From a bacterium (GTDB taxonomy: Bacteria > Babelota > Babeliae > Babelales > RVW-14): a DNA stretch of 11,757 bases. Position 1 is the first letter of the stretch; each line of letters opens with the position of its first letter. The notes under the pieces are model-generated. The model did not search any database. It was not told the origin of the DNA and saw nothing but the letters and a program-made list of their open reading frames with translations. Of the stretch, positions 2,482 through 8,545 are shown piece by piece. The DNA lies in NCBI GenBank assembly GCA_043822925.1, contig JBDRBF010000057.1, positions 1 through 11,757 on the forward strand, read 5' to 3'. A program made the position numbers and the translations under genes.

Positions 2482-2531
2482 TTTGTCATCCTGCGTAGCC
2501 TTGTGCGAAGTAGGATCCGGGCCTTATAAAA
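2482..2531 (+). repeat. Orphan REP-like palindrome related to the GIY-YIG-flanking repeats
   Basis: TTTGTCATCCTG-CGTAGCCTTGTGCGAAG-TAGGATCC-GGGCCTT-ATAAAA. The first 12 nt are identical to the GIY-YIG IRs, and the AGGATCC..CCTTATAAAA end matches the reverse complement of the right IR plus its flank. Confidence 0.8.
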
Positions 2532-3276: not shown

Positions 3277-4122
3277 ATGAAAAAATTATCTATCAAGTTA
3301 CTCATAATCTTAACACTTAGTTTATCTTTTACGTTAAACATAATGCATGCTGAACTTATAGAAACATTCACATTTACCAATAACTATGGCACAAAAATTC
3401 TAGTCATTGGAGAAAGTCACGATGCTCGCTCAATATCTCAATTCACAGAATTATTAAACAAAAAAATTATTCTAGGCTCAGAAAAAGATTTTTCTTATTT
3501 ATTAGAACTTCCATCAGATCTTCCAGATACTGTACTTACAAAAAGCAAGGGACTACTGGACTATCTGCGCCTCAATAATATACCTAACTCAAAAAAAATA
3601 GATTGTGACAGGCTGCACACCTCACTTCAACTTTCATTCCCATTTGCCGAAATTTTCGAACAACCAATCTCAATCGAACTCATGAAAAAAATAGAAGTTT
3701 TTTTTACAAAACTTGGAACTTACGAAAAATACCCCCTACCTGGAAGCACGATCGCTTACGATTCGACATGCAAAGACCTAACTAAATATCAAACAATATT
3801 AAGTGCCGCAACTGCCGCACGCGACCGGGACAAAATCTTACGTATCATCAATGACTTTAGAACAAAATACAAAGATAATCAGGTAACAGTTCGCTTAGGC
3901 CTAGCCGTAACGCCCAATGGCATGCAAAACCGCAACCAAACAATGGCAAAAAACATCGCCGAATATAATCAAAAAAATAACGCAATATGCATTATTGGCA
4001 ACACCCACTTAAAAACAATCCACGACATTTTAAAATACCAATACAACATCAAAACACTGTCAGAAATAACAACCTATGAAACTGTGTTAAAAAATAATAA
4101 GCAAATTTTCTCATCAAACTAA
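3277..4122 (+). CDS. Secreted TraB/Tiki/EreA/ChaN-superfamily-like protein, paralog A (putative metallohydrolase)
   Basis: Signal peptide ending MHA|E. Motifs ILVIGESH, YLLE, KIDCD, RNQTMAKNI and ICIIGNTHL follow the GExH...E...D...RN/DxxM...vvGxxH pattern of this superfamily. Confidence 0.7.
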   Translation: MKKLSIKLLIILTLSLSFTLNIMHAELIETFTFTNNYGTKILVIGESHDARSISQFTELLNKKIILGSEKDFSYLLELPSDLPDTVLTKSKGLLDYLRLNNIPNSKKIDCDRLHTSLQLSFPFAEIFEQPISIELMKKIEVFFTKLGTYEKYPLPGSTIAYDSTCKDLTKYQTILSAATAARDRDKILRIINDFRTKYKDNQVTVRLGLAVTPNGMQNRNQTMAKNIAEYNQKNNAICIIGNTHLKTIHDILKYQYNIKTLSEITTYETVLKNNKQIFSSN

Positions 4123-4125
4123 AAT

Positions 4126-4188
4126 CTAGAATTTAAAACTAAGATCTTTAAGAGCTTGTCGCAATTCAAACATCGGCAAGCCCATAAT
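4126..4188 (-). repeat. Duplicated 3' end of maf (direct repeat of 6240-6302)
   Basis: 56/63 nt identical to 6240-6302, with the last 29 nt identical. The minus strand encodes IMGLPMFELRQALKDLSFKF*, versus IMGLPMFELRQVLKDLGFKF* in maf. Confidence 0.93.
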
Positions 4189-4237
4189 CGCTTTATAGCA
4201 CAATTCGCTTAAAATTGCTGCAGGAATAGCACTTTTC

Positions 4238-4266
4238 TTGATTTTGTACTATTCTTTTAGTACATT
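4238..4266 (+). promoter_or_regulatory. TA promoter with overlapping palindromic operator
   Basis: TTGATT (4238-4243)-N17-TACATT (4261-4266), overlapped by the inverted repeat TGTACTA (4245-4251)-N6-TAGTACA (4258-4264). Confidence 0.65.
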
Positions 4267-4302
4267 AATATCAAATTCAAAGAACTTAGAGAAAGATTTA
4301 GA

Positions 4303-4530
4303 ATGAAAAAAATATACATAGCATGGCAGGACACCGAATTTACAATCGAATGGTATTTCACTGCAAAAGGAGAAAGCCCTGCCTTAGAATATTTTGAAAA
4401 CCTAACCAAAAACCGCAAGAAAAAATTAACAAGCTTGTTCATAACAATAACGTCTTTAGGCAAAATCTTTAATAAAGAAAAGTTCAGGAGCGAAGGCGAT
4501 CAGATATACGCCTTCAAAAAGGAAAATATT
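4303..4530 (+). pseudogene. C-terminally truncated RelE/HigB-like (Gp49/DUF891-type) toxin, fused in frame to the downstream antitoxin
   Basis: FTIEWYFTAKGESPALEYFENL...LGKIFNKEKFRSEGDQIYAFK is the N-terminal half of this toxin type. The expected R(F/I)xxF...I.lTnaF.KK C-terminal half is absent, and there is no stop before the antitoxin ATG. Confidence 0.7.
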
Positions 4531-4854
4531 ATGAATAAAAAAACAAAAGTAAAAACAACCTGCGGGGAATTTCTCAAGTCACTCTCCCCAAAAGAAAGAA
4601 AGCTATTCGAAAAAGAACACAAAGAGTTCCTAATCTCTGAAATGCTTATTGCAGCCATGCAGAAAGATGATATCTCCGTAAGAAAACTCGCTGAACTTGC
4701 TGGCGTTTCATCTGCAATTGTGCAAAGCATCCGCGCGGGAACCCAAAAAAATATAACCCTAAAAACCCTCTATAAAATTGTACACGTTTTCGGCTATTCG
4801 CTAGCTCTAACAAAAGATAATGTTGTTGTGCCAATCGACATCGCACGCCTTTAA
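4531..4854 (+). CDS. XRE/HigA-like HTH antitoxin (107 aa)
   Basis: Own SD AAGGA (4519-4523) and ATG at 4531; HTH ISVRKLAELAGVSSAIVQSIRAGTQKNITLKTLYKIVHVFG. Confidence 0.85.
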   Translation: MNKKTKVKTTCGEFLKSLSPKERKLFEKEHKEFLISEMLIAAMQKDDISVRKLAELAGVSSAIVQSIRAGTQKNITLKTLYKIVHVFGYSLALTKDNVVVPIDIARL

Positions 4855-4874
4855 GTAATTCAAAAGGCTCTCGC

Positions 4875-5732
4875 ATGAAAAAATTATGTATAAAACTCGT
4901 ACTACTTATGGCCTTGAGCCTGTCTCTCGCCGTAAACACCGCTCACGCAGAACTTAAACAAATGTTTAAGCTAACCAATAAAAATGGCATAAGTATCCTC
5001 ATTATTGGAGAAACTCACTCAGAATATAGCAGAGATCAATTCAAAGACTTATTTGATAAGAAGATAATTGACGGAACAGAAAAAGATTTTTTTTATTTAC
5101 TCGAATTACCAGCTGATTTTTCCCTATACCTGAACCCTGGACGCGGCCTCATTGGCTATGTATGTAAAAGTCATTGGGACCCCATTGACAAAATTGGCAT
5201 AAAAAGCGATTTTATCGATTATAACTTTGAACACACGGCACTCAATCTTTCATATCCACTGAATAATCTGTTCGAAAATGATGCATCCATAGAAATTATA
5301 AACGAGTTTTTTACAAAACTTGGAACTTATACGGAAGAGGAAATACCTGATACGGGCATTTTTAATAATAACACAGCTATTTGCATGAACCTCATGGAAT
5401 ATAAAAAGGCCATAGAAGATGCGATCAAAGAACGCGCCCATGATAAATGCTTAAAAATCATCGCCGAATTCCACAACGACTGGTATAGTCTAATCGATAT
5501 CACTTTAGCACTGCAAATCACACCAAATGGCCTAAAAAACCGCAATCAATGCATGGCAAAAGCTATCGCCAAATGCAAATCGAAAAAGAACGTCATTTGC
5601 GTAGTTGGAAGCGCCCACCTAGAACCTATTCGTAAACTTTTAATAGATAAACACGAAATTAAAGCAGTTACAGAAATAGAAACTTGTGAAGACGTCTTAA
5701 AAAAAGAGAAACAAATATTCGTATCAAACTAA
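4875..5732 (+). CDS. Secreted TraB/Tiki/EreA/ChaN-superfamily-like protein, paralog B
   Basis: Signal peptide ending AHA|E; motifs ILIIGETH, YLLE, FIDY, RNQCMAKAI, ICVVGSAHL. Collinear with 3277-4122 (shared EKDF.YLLELP.D, FFTKLGTY, TPNG..NRNQ.MAK, KQIF.SN*). Confidence 0.75.
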   Translation: MKKLCIKLVLLMALSLSLAVNTAHAELKQMFKLTNKNGISILIIGETHSEYSRDQFKDLFDKKIIDGTEKDFFYLLELPADFSLYLNPGRGLIGYVCKSHWDPIDKIGIKSDFIDYNFEHTALNLSYPLNNLFENDASIEIINEFFTKLGTYTEEEIPDTGIFNNNTAICMNLMEYKKAIEDAIKERAHDKCLKIIAEFHNDWYSLIDITLALQITPNGLKNRNQCMAKAIAKCKSKKNVICVVGSAHLEPIRKLLIDKHEIKAVTEIETCEDVLKKEKQIFVSN

Positions 5733-5766
5733 AACTTCCTAATACTAGCCAGCCCTATTCTCATTA

Positions 5767-5803
5767 TTTGTCATCCTGGACTCGATCCAGGATCCAAGTC
5801 CTT
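5767..5803 (+). repeat. Left 37-bp inverted repeat (internally palindromic) flanking the GIY-YIG gene
   Basis: TTTGTCATCCTGGACTCGATCCAGGATCCAAGTCCTT, with internal hairpin ATCCTGGA-CTCGA-TCCAGGAT. 36/37 identical to the reverse complement of 6144-6180. Confidence 0.95.
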
Positions 5804-5807
5804 CTTC

Positions 5808-6113
5808 CTAATCCTCATCGTCTGGCCCAAAAATCTTTTCGTACAAATCTTCCCAATCTGGATTCCGTTGCTCTATCAAATCAATTTTCCACTGCCGAAG
5901 CCAACCTTTAAGTTGTTTTTCTCGAGCAATTACAGTATTAACGCAACATGATTGTTCAACATGCACCAATTTTTTCAAATCATATTTTTGAGTAAATCCT
6001 TTGACTAAGCCAAGTCTATGTTCTTGCATGCGACGTTTTAAATTATTGGTCATCCCAATATATAAGGTTCCACGGGGTTGATTGGTAAGAATGTAAACAA
6101 CATAGATCTTCAC
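5808..6113 (-). CDS. Stand-alone GIY-YIG nuclease family protein (101 aa)
   Basis: YVVYILTN...TLYIGMTNNLKRRMQEH...GFTQKY..KKLV..E...AREKQLKGWLRQWKIDLIE..NPDW.DL. Both Tyr motifs, the Arg and the metal-binding Glu are present. GTG start is uncertain. Confidence 0.93.
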   Translation of the reverse strand: MKIYVVYILTNQPRGTLYIGMTNNLKRRMQEHRLGLVKGFTQKYDLKKLVHVEQSCCVNTVIAREKQLKGWLRQWKIDLIEQRNPDWEDLYEKIFGPDDED

Positions 6114-6143
6114 AAATACTTGGCCCGTTTTTTTTATTTTTAT

Positions 6144-6180
6144 AAGGACTTGGATCCTGGATCAAGTCCAGGATGACAAA
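6144..6180 (-). repeat. Right 37-bp inverted repeat flanking the GIY-YIG gene
   Basis: AAGGACTTGGATCCTGGATCAAGTCCAGGATGACAAA, the reverse complement of 5767-5803 with one mismatch in the hairpin loop. Confidence 0.95.
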
Positions 6181-6239
6181 GAATATAAGAGAATTTGTCG
6201 TTTAGAAATTAGAAGCCTCAATTTATGGAATACAACTGA

Positions 6240-6872
6240 CTAAAACTTAAACCCAAGATCTTTAAGCACTTGGCGCAATTCAAACATCGGCAAGCCCATA
6301 ATTGAAGAGTAAGCCCCCTGAATCGACTTACAAAAATTTTGCCCAAAGCCTTCAATAATTGCCGCGCCGGCAGCGTGCATAACAAGCGGGACCTGTTTAA
6401 TAAAAAGATCTACATCGTCTTGGCCAACGACAAATTCAACACTTGCCACTGTTGTCCATGCTCTGGTTTCATCGCGCACCCATGCTCCATTTTCCCATTT
6501 TTTTCTTTCAAGGCAACAGCCAGTTGCAACTTCAACAGCTTCATTGCGATAAGTTTGCAGCATATAAAGCGCATGTTCTTTATCACGCGGTTTGCCAAAA
6601 ACCTGATGTGAGTTTTTTGTCCTGACCATCGTATCTGCTGTTAAAACAAAAATAGTATCGCCTGTTTTGTGAGCATCGTGTTCAGGCAAAATAAGACTGT
6701 CCATTTTGTGTTGTGCGATTGCAAGCACATAATTAGAAAAATCATGCTCTGTGTGCGTTGTAATTTGTTCGTCACTCGTATGATCAAGAACTTTAAATGT
6801 ATAACCGGTTTCTTCGAGTAATTTTTTTCGCGATTGAGATTGTGAACCAAGATATAATGTATCAATACTCAC
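6240..6872 (-). CDS. maf: Maf-family nucleoside triphosphate pyrophosphatase
   Basis: LYLGSQSQSRKKLL, LTADTMV, FGKPRDKEHA..ML, AGA..IEG.G, IQGAYSSIMGLP. Likely GTG start at 6872 with SD GGAG (6881-6878) 5 nt upstream. Confidence 0.92.
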   Translation of the reverse strand: MSIDTLYLGSQSQSRKKLLEETGYTFKVLDHTSDEQITTHTEHDFSNYVLAIAQHKMDSLILPEHDAHKTGDTIFVLTADTMVRTKNSHQVFGKPRDKEHALYMLQTYRNEAVEVATGCCLERKKWENGAWVRDETRAWTTVASVEFVVGQDDVDLFIKQVPLVMHAAGAAIIEGFGQNFCKSIQGAYSSIMGLPMFELRQVLKDLGFKF

Positions 6873-6945
6873 GTGTGCTCCAATATTTTTTTTATTTTTT
6901 AGATTTTTTCCCAGGAACAAAATTCACACCTAGGGTTAAAAACCA

Positions 6946-7001
6946 CCAGGCTAAAGAACATGAACGCGTGCCGCTGGCACGCTCATATGTTCCATGGCAA
7001 T
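6946..7001. repeat. Intergenic composite palindrome between dprA and maf
   Basis: Hairpin GAACAT..GCGTGCC-GCT-GGCACGC..ATGTTC (6956-6992), flanked by CCAGGCTAAAG and CCATGGCAAT. Confidence 0.6.
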
Positions 7002-7042: not shown

Positions 7043-8338
7043 TTAGATTTTTTCCCAAGAGCCAGCAAAATTTTGTTTTACTAAACCGTCAAGCTGTAGA
7101 CAAAAAAGCTTATCCTGTAACTCAGCAAAACTCAGACCTGATTTTATCGTTAATTCGTCCAGCGTATGCATGCTATCAAAATGAGCCAAGAACGGGTCGG
7201 CTAAAATTTGTGCTGGCGCAGAGACACGATTATATATTTTTGTCTGTTCTTGAGACACGCCTAATTCTTGTGCACTATCACGACCTAAGCGCGCAGCGCT
7301 TGCAACGCCAGCAGCACAATCATATTCACCAAACTCGCCCAAAATATCAGAAACATCTTTAACTAGTTTAGCGCCATGATCAAGCAATTTGTGGCACCCG
7401 TCACTTAAATCGTTAAATATAGACCCTGGAACAGCAAACACCTGTTTGCCTTGTTCAAGCGCAAATTCAGCCGTAATTAATGCACCGCTTTTTTGCGCAG
7501 CCTGAACAATAACACAGCCCTGAGATAAACCAGCTATAATGCGATTGCGCGCAGGAAACGTTGTTTTATCTGGAGACATACGCAGCGGGAAAGATGAAAC
7601 AAGCGTGCCGCCACTGGCCACTATTTTTTTGAAAAATTTTTTATTTTGTTCCGGATACGGACGTAAAAGACCGGAACCAAGCACAATAATTGTTTTGCCG
7701 CCAGCATCATGCGTTGCTTTATGAGCCATGCTATCGACACCCAATGCTCCCCCACTTACGATTTCCCAGCCATTACTTACTAACCCTGGAACCAAGTGGT
7801 CTATTACTTGAGCTGCGTATTTATCGGCTTTGCGTGCACCGACAAACGCGATACGTTTGGGGACCTCTTCGACGAGGCACGCAGGGTGAGCGCCGGACGA
7901 AGCAAAAAGAGCGCCCAGAAAACCGCCTTTGCTATACAACAATAATGGGGGCTGATTAATATTTCTGAGCAATACGGGATATTCTTGGTCAAGAATTGTA
8001 TCGATGCGTATCGTGTATTTTTCGATAAGCTCTAATTCTTCTTCAAGTAATTTTTTGTCTGCGAGCCCTTGAACCAAAATAGTAGCAACTTTTTCTGTAA
8101 GACCAATTTTATTTCTAAAATCAGCGCATGTAAATGCGTAAATTTGTTCGAACGATAACGTATCAAGATGCTCGATTTTATCCCGAAGAATATCGCAGGC
8201 TTGCGATGAGTTTAATCCAGATCGATCACGCAAAAAATCGTTAACATGCAACAGGTATGCAATTAACTTGCATACCGTTGCTGGTCCTATACCTGATATT
8301 AATGATAAATGTAATAACGTTTGTCTATTTTGTTTCAT
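7043..8338 (-). CDS. dprA: DNA-processing protein DprA (Smf)
   Basis: LSLISGIGP, YPVLLRNINQPPLLLYSKG, IAFVGAR, IVSGGALGVDSMAH, VLGSGL, FPARNRIIAGLS, AAQKSGALITA, VFAVPG, GCHKLL..GAKLV and a C-terminal winged helix. Likely start is ATG 8338 (MKQNRQ); the extension to 8410 is repeat-derived. Confidence 0.95.
   Translation of the reverse strand: MKQNRQTLLHLSLISGIGPATVCKLIAYLLHVNDFLRDRSGLNSSQACDILRDKIEHLDTLSFEQIYAFTCADFRNKIGLTEKVATILVQGLADKKLLEEELELIEKYTIRIDTILDQEYPVLLRNINQPPLLLYSKGGFLGALFASSGAHPACLVEEVPKRIAFVGARKADKYAAQVIDHLVPGLVSNGWEIVSGGALGVDSMAHKATHDAGGKTIIVLGSGLLRPYPEQNKKFFKKIVASGGTLVSSFPLRMSPDKTTFPARNRIIAGLSQGCVIVQAAQKSGALITAEFALEQGKQVFAVPGSIFNDLSDGCHKLLDHGAKLVKDVSDILGEFGEYDCAAGVASAARLGRDSAQELGVSQEQTKIYNRVSAPAQILADPFLAHFDSMHTLDELTIKSGLSFAELQDKLFCLQLDGLVKQNFAGSWEKI
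7861..7893 (-). repeat. REP-like element inside the dprA reading frame
   Basis: The reverse complement of 7867-7893 is GCGCTCACCCTGCGTGCCTCGTCGAAG, 26/27 identical to intergenic 8483-8509. It encodes (G)AHPACLVEEV. Confidence 0.85.
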
Positions 8339-8350
8339 ATACTTTGCTTG

Positions 8351-8540
8351 CCCTTCGACCTGTCCTCCGAAGCTACAAGCCGATAGGCGAAGAGCGTAGG
8401 AGGAAGCCACGTAGGGCGTAGTAGGGTTCTCTTGTTTTTTATTTCCCCAATCTTACATGATGCTTCGACAAGCTCAGCATGAGCGCTCTCCCTGCGTGCC
8501 TCGTCGAAGCCCTACGAAGACGGGTGCTTGTCGAAGGGTC
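8351..8540. repeat. Cluster of nested and back-to-back REP-like palindromes in the gyrA-dprA spacer
   Basis: GC-rich patch containing TCCTCCGAAGCT (8363-8374)/AGCGTAGGAGGA (8393-8404), ATGCTTCGACAAGCTCAGCATGAGCG (8460-8485) and GCGCTCTCCCTGCGTGCCTCGTCGAAG...GCTTGTCGAAGGGTC (8483-8540). Confidence 0.85.
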
Positions 8541-8545
8541 TTCTC

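Follow-up and report, generated by a model that had tools for sequence, protein, structure and literature searches.

A small nuclease gene lying between two nearly identical hairpins raises the question of whether its product acts on these hairpins and, if so, whether it spreads them. Such a locus occupies positions 5767 to 6180 of the 11,757-nt stretch of bacterial DNA analyzed here (the window), which belongs to a 1.52-Mb genome bin. A first-pass annotation had proposed that a GIY-YIG nuclease, rather than a Y1 transposase, recognizes and nicks the hairpins and thereby mobilizes them.

The ssn gene and its flanking hairpins

The gene, referred to below as ssn, extends from 5808 to 6113 on the minus strand and encodes, from a GTG start and without an internal stop, a protein of 101 amino acids in which a Pfam scan recognized PF01541 (GIY-YIG; E value of 1.2e-13, residues 4 to 77) as the sole domain. 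The left repeat (5767 to 5803, plus strand) lies downstream of ssn and forms a hairpin with a TGTC tag at 5769, an 8-bp stem, a 5-nt loop, and a CCA tail; the right repeat (6144 to 6180, minus strand) lies upstream of ssn and forms the same hairpin, with its tag at 6178. The two repeats, 37 nt long and identical at 36 positions, are the longest inverted pair of the window. Their tags face outwards from ssn, whose stop codon (5808 to 5810) is 4 nt from the left repeat and whose start codon is 30 nt from the right one. Folded as single-stranded DNA (ssDNA), each repeat reached -7.9 kcal/mol (z scores of -3.7 and -3.2), a value that 1 of 200 shuffles equaled. The open reading frame, the Pfam match, the repeat comparison, and the folding thus agree with the first-pass description of an intact gene between two TGTC-tagged hairpins, and its statements on the stop codon and on the lack of a target duplication at the repeats were borne out as well. 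We found no promoter in the hairpin upstream of ssn and no terminator; promoter-like sites numbered 2, versus 2.0 expected by chance. An Rfam search of the window matched no RNA family, a PADLOC scan for defense systems matched none of three proteins, and a comparison with 50,697 phage records gave no match, leaving phage carriage unsupported.

Single-domain GIY-YIG proteins assigned to cd10448 (GIY-YIG_unchar_3), whose genes are flanked by tagged hairpins called NTS or SRM, have been described as Ssn (PMC11893778, Chenal et al. 2025). According to the accessible text of that paper, both flanks carry such hairpins in 42% of the Ssn homologues, hairpin-specific cutting close to the cognate repeat was shown for four homologues on ssDNA but not on dsDNA or RNA, and Neisseria meningitidis SsnA reduces transformation by NTS-bearing DNA, which is the sole in vivo effect published there. 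With 101 residues and PF01541 alone, the window protein lies within the limits of an Ssn single-domain protein (GIY-YIG, fewer than 150 aa). It has one match per chromosome in two Neisseria gonorrhoeae chromosomes, at 46 to 47% identity. This counterpart, a 94-aa protein with Y6, Y17, and E64 and with 10 NTS within 3.3 kb, is inferred to be the ssnA orthologue and was used as a stand-in for the N. meningitidis query. Searched against the bin by tblastn, it recovered the window gene (E value of 2.1e-22, 91 of 94 residues, 46% identity), which, measured against this stand-in, falls inside the Ssn homology rule (E value below 1e-10, more than 75% of the length) and outside the strict class (60% identity or more with N. 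meningitidis SsnA). In the accessible text of PMC11893778, the 60% value serves merely as a stricter filter, and all seven species from our own list of matches that were checked against its tables are entered as homolog yes, >60% no, and cd10448 yes.

Residues Y7, Y18, R28, H32, and E65 of the window protein align with Y6, Y17, R27, H31, and E64 of the N. gonorrhoeae protein, and the catalytic Y7, Y18, and E65 are kept in 96, 97, and 97 of 98 aligned homologues. Beside the catalytic glutamate, the window protein carries Val61, where 95 of the 98 homologues have alanine. In a quick tree (98 columns, few outgroups, and 58 rows chosen from 129), 37 ssn rows, including N. gonorrhoeae and Azospirillum lipoferum 4B, grouped on one side of a branch with an SH-aLRT value of 94, and this side excluded two other small GIY-YIG groups. 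As in Ssn, oriented tagged hairpins lie on both sides of the gene and are dispersed in the genome. We conclude from sequence that the gene and its repeats almost certainly form an SRM-ssn-SRM cassette of the Ssn family. The Ssn-type cassette system is already known, and the window copy is another case of it rather than a new system.

The repeat of the cassette is, by its sequence features, an SRM/CGTC-type REP variant. The SRM was defined from 29 genomes that do not include the host lineage of the window (PMC11893778), and the published search pattern found a single match in the bin, compared with 2.0 in 10 shuffles. The window hairpin itself is three substitutions away from the exact pattern. 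Hairpins beside close homologues grade from the short stem of the window type into exact NTS, and we therefore read the window hairpin as a short-stem variant that the SRM pattern misses; because it lies outside that pattern, its cutting specificity is an extrapolation. A relaxed pattern, which we built after viewing the flanks of homologues, gave 50 matches in the bin versus 0 to 3 (mean, 1.75) in 20 shuffles, showing that the abundance of the hairpin in the bin is not due to chance, and 42 of the 50 matches have at least 6 of 7 stem pairs. Twelve further SRM copies (C2:34373, C2:43557, C6:12738, and nine more, counted from 13 rows of which one is a neighboring pair) harbor a second hairpin of 31 to 47 nt inserted at one fixed position of the loop.

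Pairing of ssn with hairpins across genomes

The first-pass annotation had suggested looking for enrichment of such hairpins beside homologous genes, and this enrichment was found. Under a generic tag-plus-stem rule, hairpins were present on both sides at 67 of 110 homologue loci and on at least one side at 94 of 110. With the relaxed pattern, both sides carried hairpins at 19 of 27 loci of relatives and at 44 of 71 loci from other lineages (1 of 28 and 8 of 79 loci, respectively, having been dropped for short flanks), while none of the control windows placed 900 to 1,200 nt away was bracketed (0/22 and 0/61). The tags faced outwards in 17 of the 19 and 31 of the 44 bracketed loci. Independently of any pattern, inverted repeats of 18 nt or more occurred at 23 of 29 ssn loci and at none of 29 maf loci. 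Among the bin's 1,089 open reading frames of 100 aa or more, a set that excludes the window gene because of its GTG start, the only one bracketed by hairpins was a second ssn copy on contig C2, which is flanked by the commonest stem variant of the bin.

The two ssn copies of the bin share 75% identity, with a dN/dS of 0.084 and a dS of 1.67, versus a dS of 0.41 for maf between contigs C57 and C6; by these values, they are old, diverged, and conserved. The window copy adjoins maf-dprA, and the C2 copy sits before a weakly ComEC-like gene whose score is below the cut-off. Across ssn-positive genomes, the number of matches ranges from 1 to 7. Protein and hairpin similarity covaried as the first-pass annotation had anticipated, with a Mantel rho of 0.52 (n = 81, P = 0.001) that is inflated by kinship.

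Repeat copy number followed the presence of the gene. Among 40 relatives, a panel that contains no genome of the window's own genus, 16 of 18 with ssn were repeat rich (at least 15 matches), compared to 4 of 22 without it; within the family, the figures were 14 of 16 and 3 of 8. We settled on both the pattern and the 15-copy threshold only once the data had been inspected, and kin genomes are not independent. The counts are kept as first defined, with genome G006 scored as ssn positive by E value, although its match belongs to a second GIY-YIG subfamily. Four repeat-rich genomes (18 to 168 matches, 91 to 95% complete), in which our query found no ssn, speak against such a link; their small GIY-YIG genes fall into other groups, and two of the four also lack a Y1 match. 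These two, G001 and G017, have 168 and 42 hairpin matches and are 91% complete, and in them ssn may have been lost or left unassembled, or another mobilizer may be at work.

Filled and empty sites and other palindromes

On contig C6 of the same bin, C6:11698-21410 is syntenic with the whole window at about 85% identity and lacks the cassette. The bin holds further contig pairs that are 82 to 90% identical (C57/C80 versus C6, C15/C76 versus C16, and C50 versus C74), with a second gyrA, dprA, murB, and maf, and these are most simply explained by two sister organisms binned together. The absence from C6 is not confined to the cassette: the missing block comprises 2,114 nt (4126 to 6239) and includes a maf remnant, an HTH gene, a diverged copy of a hypothetical gene, and the ssn cassette. 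It starts with a 63-nt copy of the maf 3' end (4126 to 4188, minus strand), which differs by 7 mismatches from the 3' end of the intact maf gene that follows the block (6240 to 6302, minus strand). Since the missing block exceeds the cassette and is framed by maf repeats, the cassette may have arrived as a passenger. We observed no integrase in this block at the maf 3' end. Its HTH gene (4303 to 4854) may form a fusion with a truncated upstream gene, and its hypothetical gene (4875 to 5732) encodes a secreted-looking protein that is 42% identical to the product of an upstream hypothetical gene and was not found in 34 genomes of the family.

A finer comparison is offered by two convergent stop codons, which are 3 nt apart both at C6 and at window positions 4120 to 4128 and 507 nt apart at the cassette. 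About 504 nt (5736 to 6239) have therefore been gained at the cassette junction, or lost elsewhere, the direction of change in the contig-pair comparisons not being polarized. This extra DNA contains the entire cassette and extends about 31 nt and about 59 nt beyond the repeats. The leader outside the left hairpin (5733 to 5766, plus strand), which is part of it, is partly common to the C2 cassette and to one solo hairpin on C83. No target duplication was found abutting the repeats. A 9-nt repeat (5729 to 5737 and 6240 to 6248) was considered as one and rejected, as it is accounted for by a short tandem repeat that the C6 junction already has there.

Solo hairpins differed between paired contigs as well. 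In four cases (41, 42, about 57, and 75 nt), one contig of a pair carries the hairpin and its partner does not; one of the four lies in frame in dprA, and these insertions have 5' extensions of roughly 5 to 30 nt and no visible duplication. Among relatives, ssn was beside maf at none of 29 maf loci, at 26 of which dprA still adjoins maf. When ssn loci were compared pairwise, only 12 of 406 pairs had neighbors in common, 10 of these 12 coming from five loci near holB, and the homologues occupy more than 20 different neighborhoods, where each has a matching inverted pair of its own. In three genomes from different genera (L027, L031, and L032; L021 and L024 also lie near holB), ssn is found at a common site downstream of holB, which may be an ancient position of the gene or a place where it has landed repeatedly and which fits a stable locus too. 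In L027, L031, and L032, ssn sits between holB and a weakly ComEC-like gene, and the three proteins are not sisters in the tree. Absence from C6 and from relatives, the scarcity of common neighbors, the copy number, and the solo differences are indirect signs of mobility. Four public sequencing runs contained pieces of the window locus at full identity, with no contig joining across the cassette and no piece spanning it.

The orphan palindromes elsewhere in the window had been thought to be related to those of the cassette, which turned out to hold for only one of them. This altered hairpin (2482 to 2518, plus strand) keeps the tag and the outer stem, differs in its loop sequence, and is 26 nt shorter in C6. 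Most of the others belong to different families. The palindrome at 8340 to 8425 matches, at 43 of 48 nt, the repeats flanking a third small GIY-YIG group and is of the kind nested at the fixed point in SRM loops. Members of this third group (L184 and L186 to L194) lie mostly just downstream of tRNA-like genes. Palindromes at 7864 to 7893 and 8460 to 8545 resemble by eye, without a blastn match at an E value of 1e-3, the hairpins of a second small GIY-YIG subfamily (L199 to L222, e.g., G017:C21:1577-1861), in which hairpins of its own bracket 15 of 24 loci and SRM bracket none. Neither group was found in the window's bin, although similar repeats are present there. The palindrome at about 6925 to 6985 resembles by eye, with no blastn match, the flanks of the Y1 genes of the bin.

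Two further observations concern genes of the window. The dprA genes at 7043 to 8410 and at C6:16568-18013 carry differing in-frame palindromic insertions (7864 to 7893 in the window; 16726 to 16767 and about 17467 in C6). At 1260 to 2350, two consecutive open reading frames (169 and 129 aa) have no Pfam match and are also two in C6; they may derive from a split or decayed gene of the cell-wall amidase type.

Mechanism, rival explanations, and relation to known systems

The best explanation overall, and one that we consider likely, is that the locus is an Ssn cassette whose hairpin-cutting enzyme supports a host-assisted, semi-selfish spread. By analogy with its homologues, the window protein is likely to be an active, hairpin-specific enzyme: a Mg-dependent endonuclease that would bind its own tagged hairpin in ssDNA only and cut a few bases 5' of the tag. 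Our reading of the N. meningitidis data in the accessible text of PMC11893778 places the cut 4 nt 5' of the tag. With this geometry, nicks are predicted just beyond the cassette, at about 5764/5765 on the plus strand and about 6182/6183 on the minus strand. Such nicks may arise in ssDNA during replication or DNA uptake, and host recombination or repair would then join the ends in at new sites; the joined pieces would carry some flanking DNA and leave no target duplication. As in N. meningitidis, the nuclease may also trim incoming hairpin-bearing ssDNA. To our knowledge, GIY-YIG enzymes hydrolyze DNA and do not join strands, and no covalent strand-transfer chemistry is expected of them. The cassette and the solo hairpins would thus most likely spread as semi-selfish DNA by way of the host. 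Whether the nuclease causally drives this spread is, in our judgment, evenly balanced.

The main rival, which we regard as unlikely, is that ssn is a domesticated ssDNA restriction gene that cuts hairpins and tunes DNA uptake, while the repeats spread otherwise and the cassette is a passenger. Reduced transformation is indeed the only in vivo function published, the block missing from C6 exceeds the cassette and is bounded by a maf repeat, the two copies of the bin lie by maf-dprA and before a weakly ComEC-like gene, and there are repeat-rich genomes without a detected ssn. Against this, the cassette occupies a junction at which two comparators have just 3 nt, and the homologues sit in more than 20 neighborhoods with matching inverted pairs of their own. 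At the other extreme, the nuclease alone might excise and insert the hairpin-bounded unit, as IS200/IS605 TnpA does. The prevailing outward orientation of the tags at bracketed loci, the predicted nicks just beyond both ends, and the several copies per genome would suit such an autonomous transposon. This is nevertheless improbable, since the extra DNA of about 31 and 59 nt beyond the repeats and the variable 5' extensions of the solo insertions are not ends fixed 4 nt from the tag and no joining activity is reported in the accessible text of PMC11893778. Host-assisted nick-and-repair fits the ragged, duplication-free ends better than precise transposition does.

The possibility that a Y1/RAYT-type transposase elsewhere spreads the repeats, with the GIY-YIG gene being merely a frequent target, had been named in the first-pass annotation as what would undo its proposal; it is now largely refuted and very improbable. 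The annotation saw no transposase, which is correct for the window and not for the bin, where four Y1_Tnp genes exist (C2:23468, C64:2690, C68:4695, and C83:55121). They are IS200-like, and the one tested scores as an IS200/IS605 transposase with a weak RAYT match. However, each is flanked by its own, unrelated inverted repeats, and ssn-type hairpins bracketed 0 of 32 Y1 loci. Repeat richness showed no link to Y1_Tnp (10 of 16 Y1-positive genomes versus 10 of the 24 others), and in eight repeat-rich genomes we found ssn and no Y1 gene. With the inverted pairs at ssn rather than maf loci and, in the accessible text of PMC11893778, four homologues that cut hairpin ssDNA, the proposal that the hairpins are partnered by a GIY-YIG nuclease rather than by a Y1/RAYT enzyme is supported.

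More widely, Ssn nucleases might be the missing mobilizers of CGTC-tagged REPs and might, along with at least two further small GIY-YIG subfamilies that have hairpins of their own, drive an HUH-free spread by nick and repair; we advance this only tentatively and think it somewhat doubtful. Sibling pairings of GIY-YIG genes and hairpins, if confirmed, would widen the family. The locus adds one short-stem Ssn/SRM pair, which might offer ssDNA tools a further specificity, and it reveals that repeats of this class are undercounted by the published SRM pattern. Near-identical contig pairs provide filled and empty sites, by which the spread of CGTC-tagged REPs becomes testable. New here are the filled/empty contig comparison, the solo-hairpin differences, and the link of ssn, and not of Y1, to repeat richness. 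Our search, confined to literature outside subscription journals, found no later work on Ssn mobility or on sibling pairings of GIY-YIG genes and hairpins, and in the accessible part of a 2026 preprint, SsnA repeats serve only as a benchmark.

With GIY-YIG homing endonucleases and Slx1, ssn shares the fold and motif, but it has no separate DNA-binding domain, intron, or long target site, and matches to these proteins were weak (TIGR01453 at 23.8 bits versus a cut-off of 56; SLX1 chains at E values of 0.057 and 0.33). A classical insertion sequence or MITE-forming transposon was also rejected, as there is no transposase, the extra DNA runs past both repeats, and a target duplication is lacking. 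REPtrons and IS200/IS605 elements have in common with the cassette that inverted hairpins, found as solo copies too, enclose a gene for a small nuclease and that ssDNA hairpins are recognized. The REPtron-like layout noted in the first-pass annotation is thus real, but it had already been described, with the same parallel: the discussion of PMC11893778 compares NTS-ssnA-NTS to insertion sequences (IS200) and REP-associated transposases, and the accessible text only raises the mobile-element idea for Ssn cassettes. The window enzyme is a GIY-YIG and not an HUH/Y1 protein, and its tag is YGTC and not GTAG; with no Y1_Tnp match in the ssn protein and a TGTC tag, membership in the RAYT-encoding REPtrons was rejected.

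CGTC-tagged REPs, which include the Neisseria dRS3 and Rickettsia RPE-4 and RPE-6 repeats (PMC3733652, Di Nocera et al. 2013), have a CGTC or TGTC tag, a stem of 8 to 9 bp starting with AT, a loop of 4 to 5 nt, and a CCA tail, and the window hairpin has all of these, with TGTC, 8 bp, and 5 nt. Both families have intragenic copies, in the present case one of 42 nt that lies in frame within the C6 dprA. As far as the accessible text of PMC3733652 goes, no dedicated transposase was found for these REPs, whereas here a cognate GIY-YIG gene is bracketed. The likeness to Ssn/SRM comprises a single domain of about 100 aa, the catalytic Tyr/Tyr/Glu, and oriented YGTC-tagged hairpins on both sides and dispersed. 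The window pair differs in a stem shorter than the SRM pattern permits, in a protein that, at 46% identity to the N. gonorrhoeae counterpart, is below the strict 60% class, and in the filled and empty comparators that exist for its cassette.
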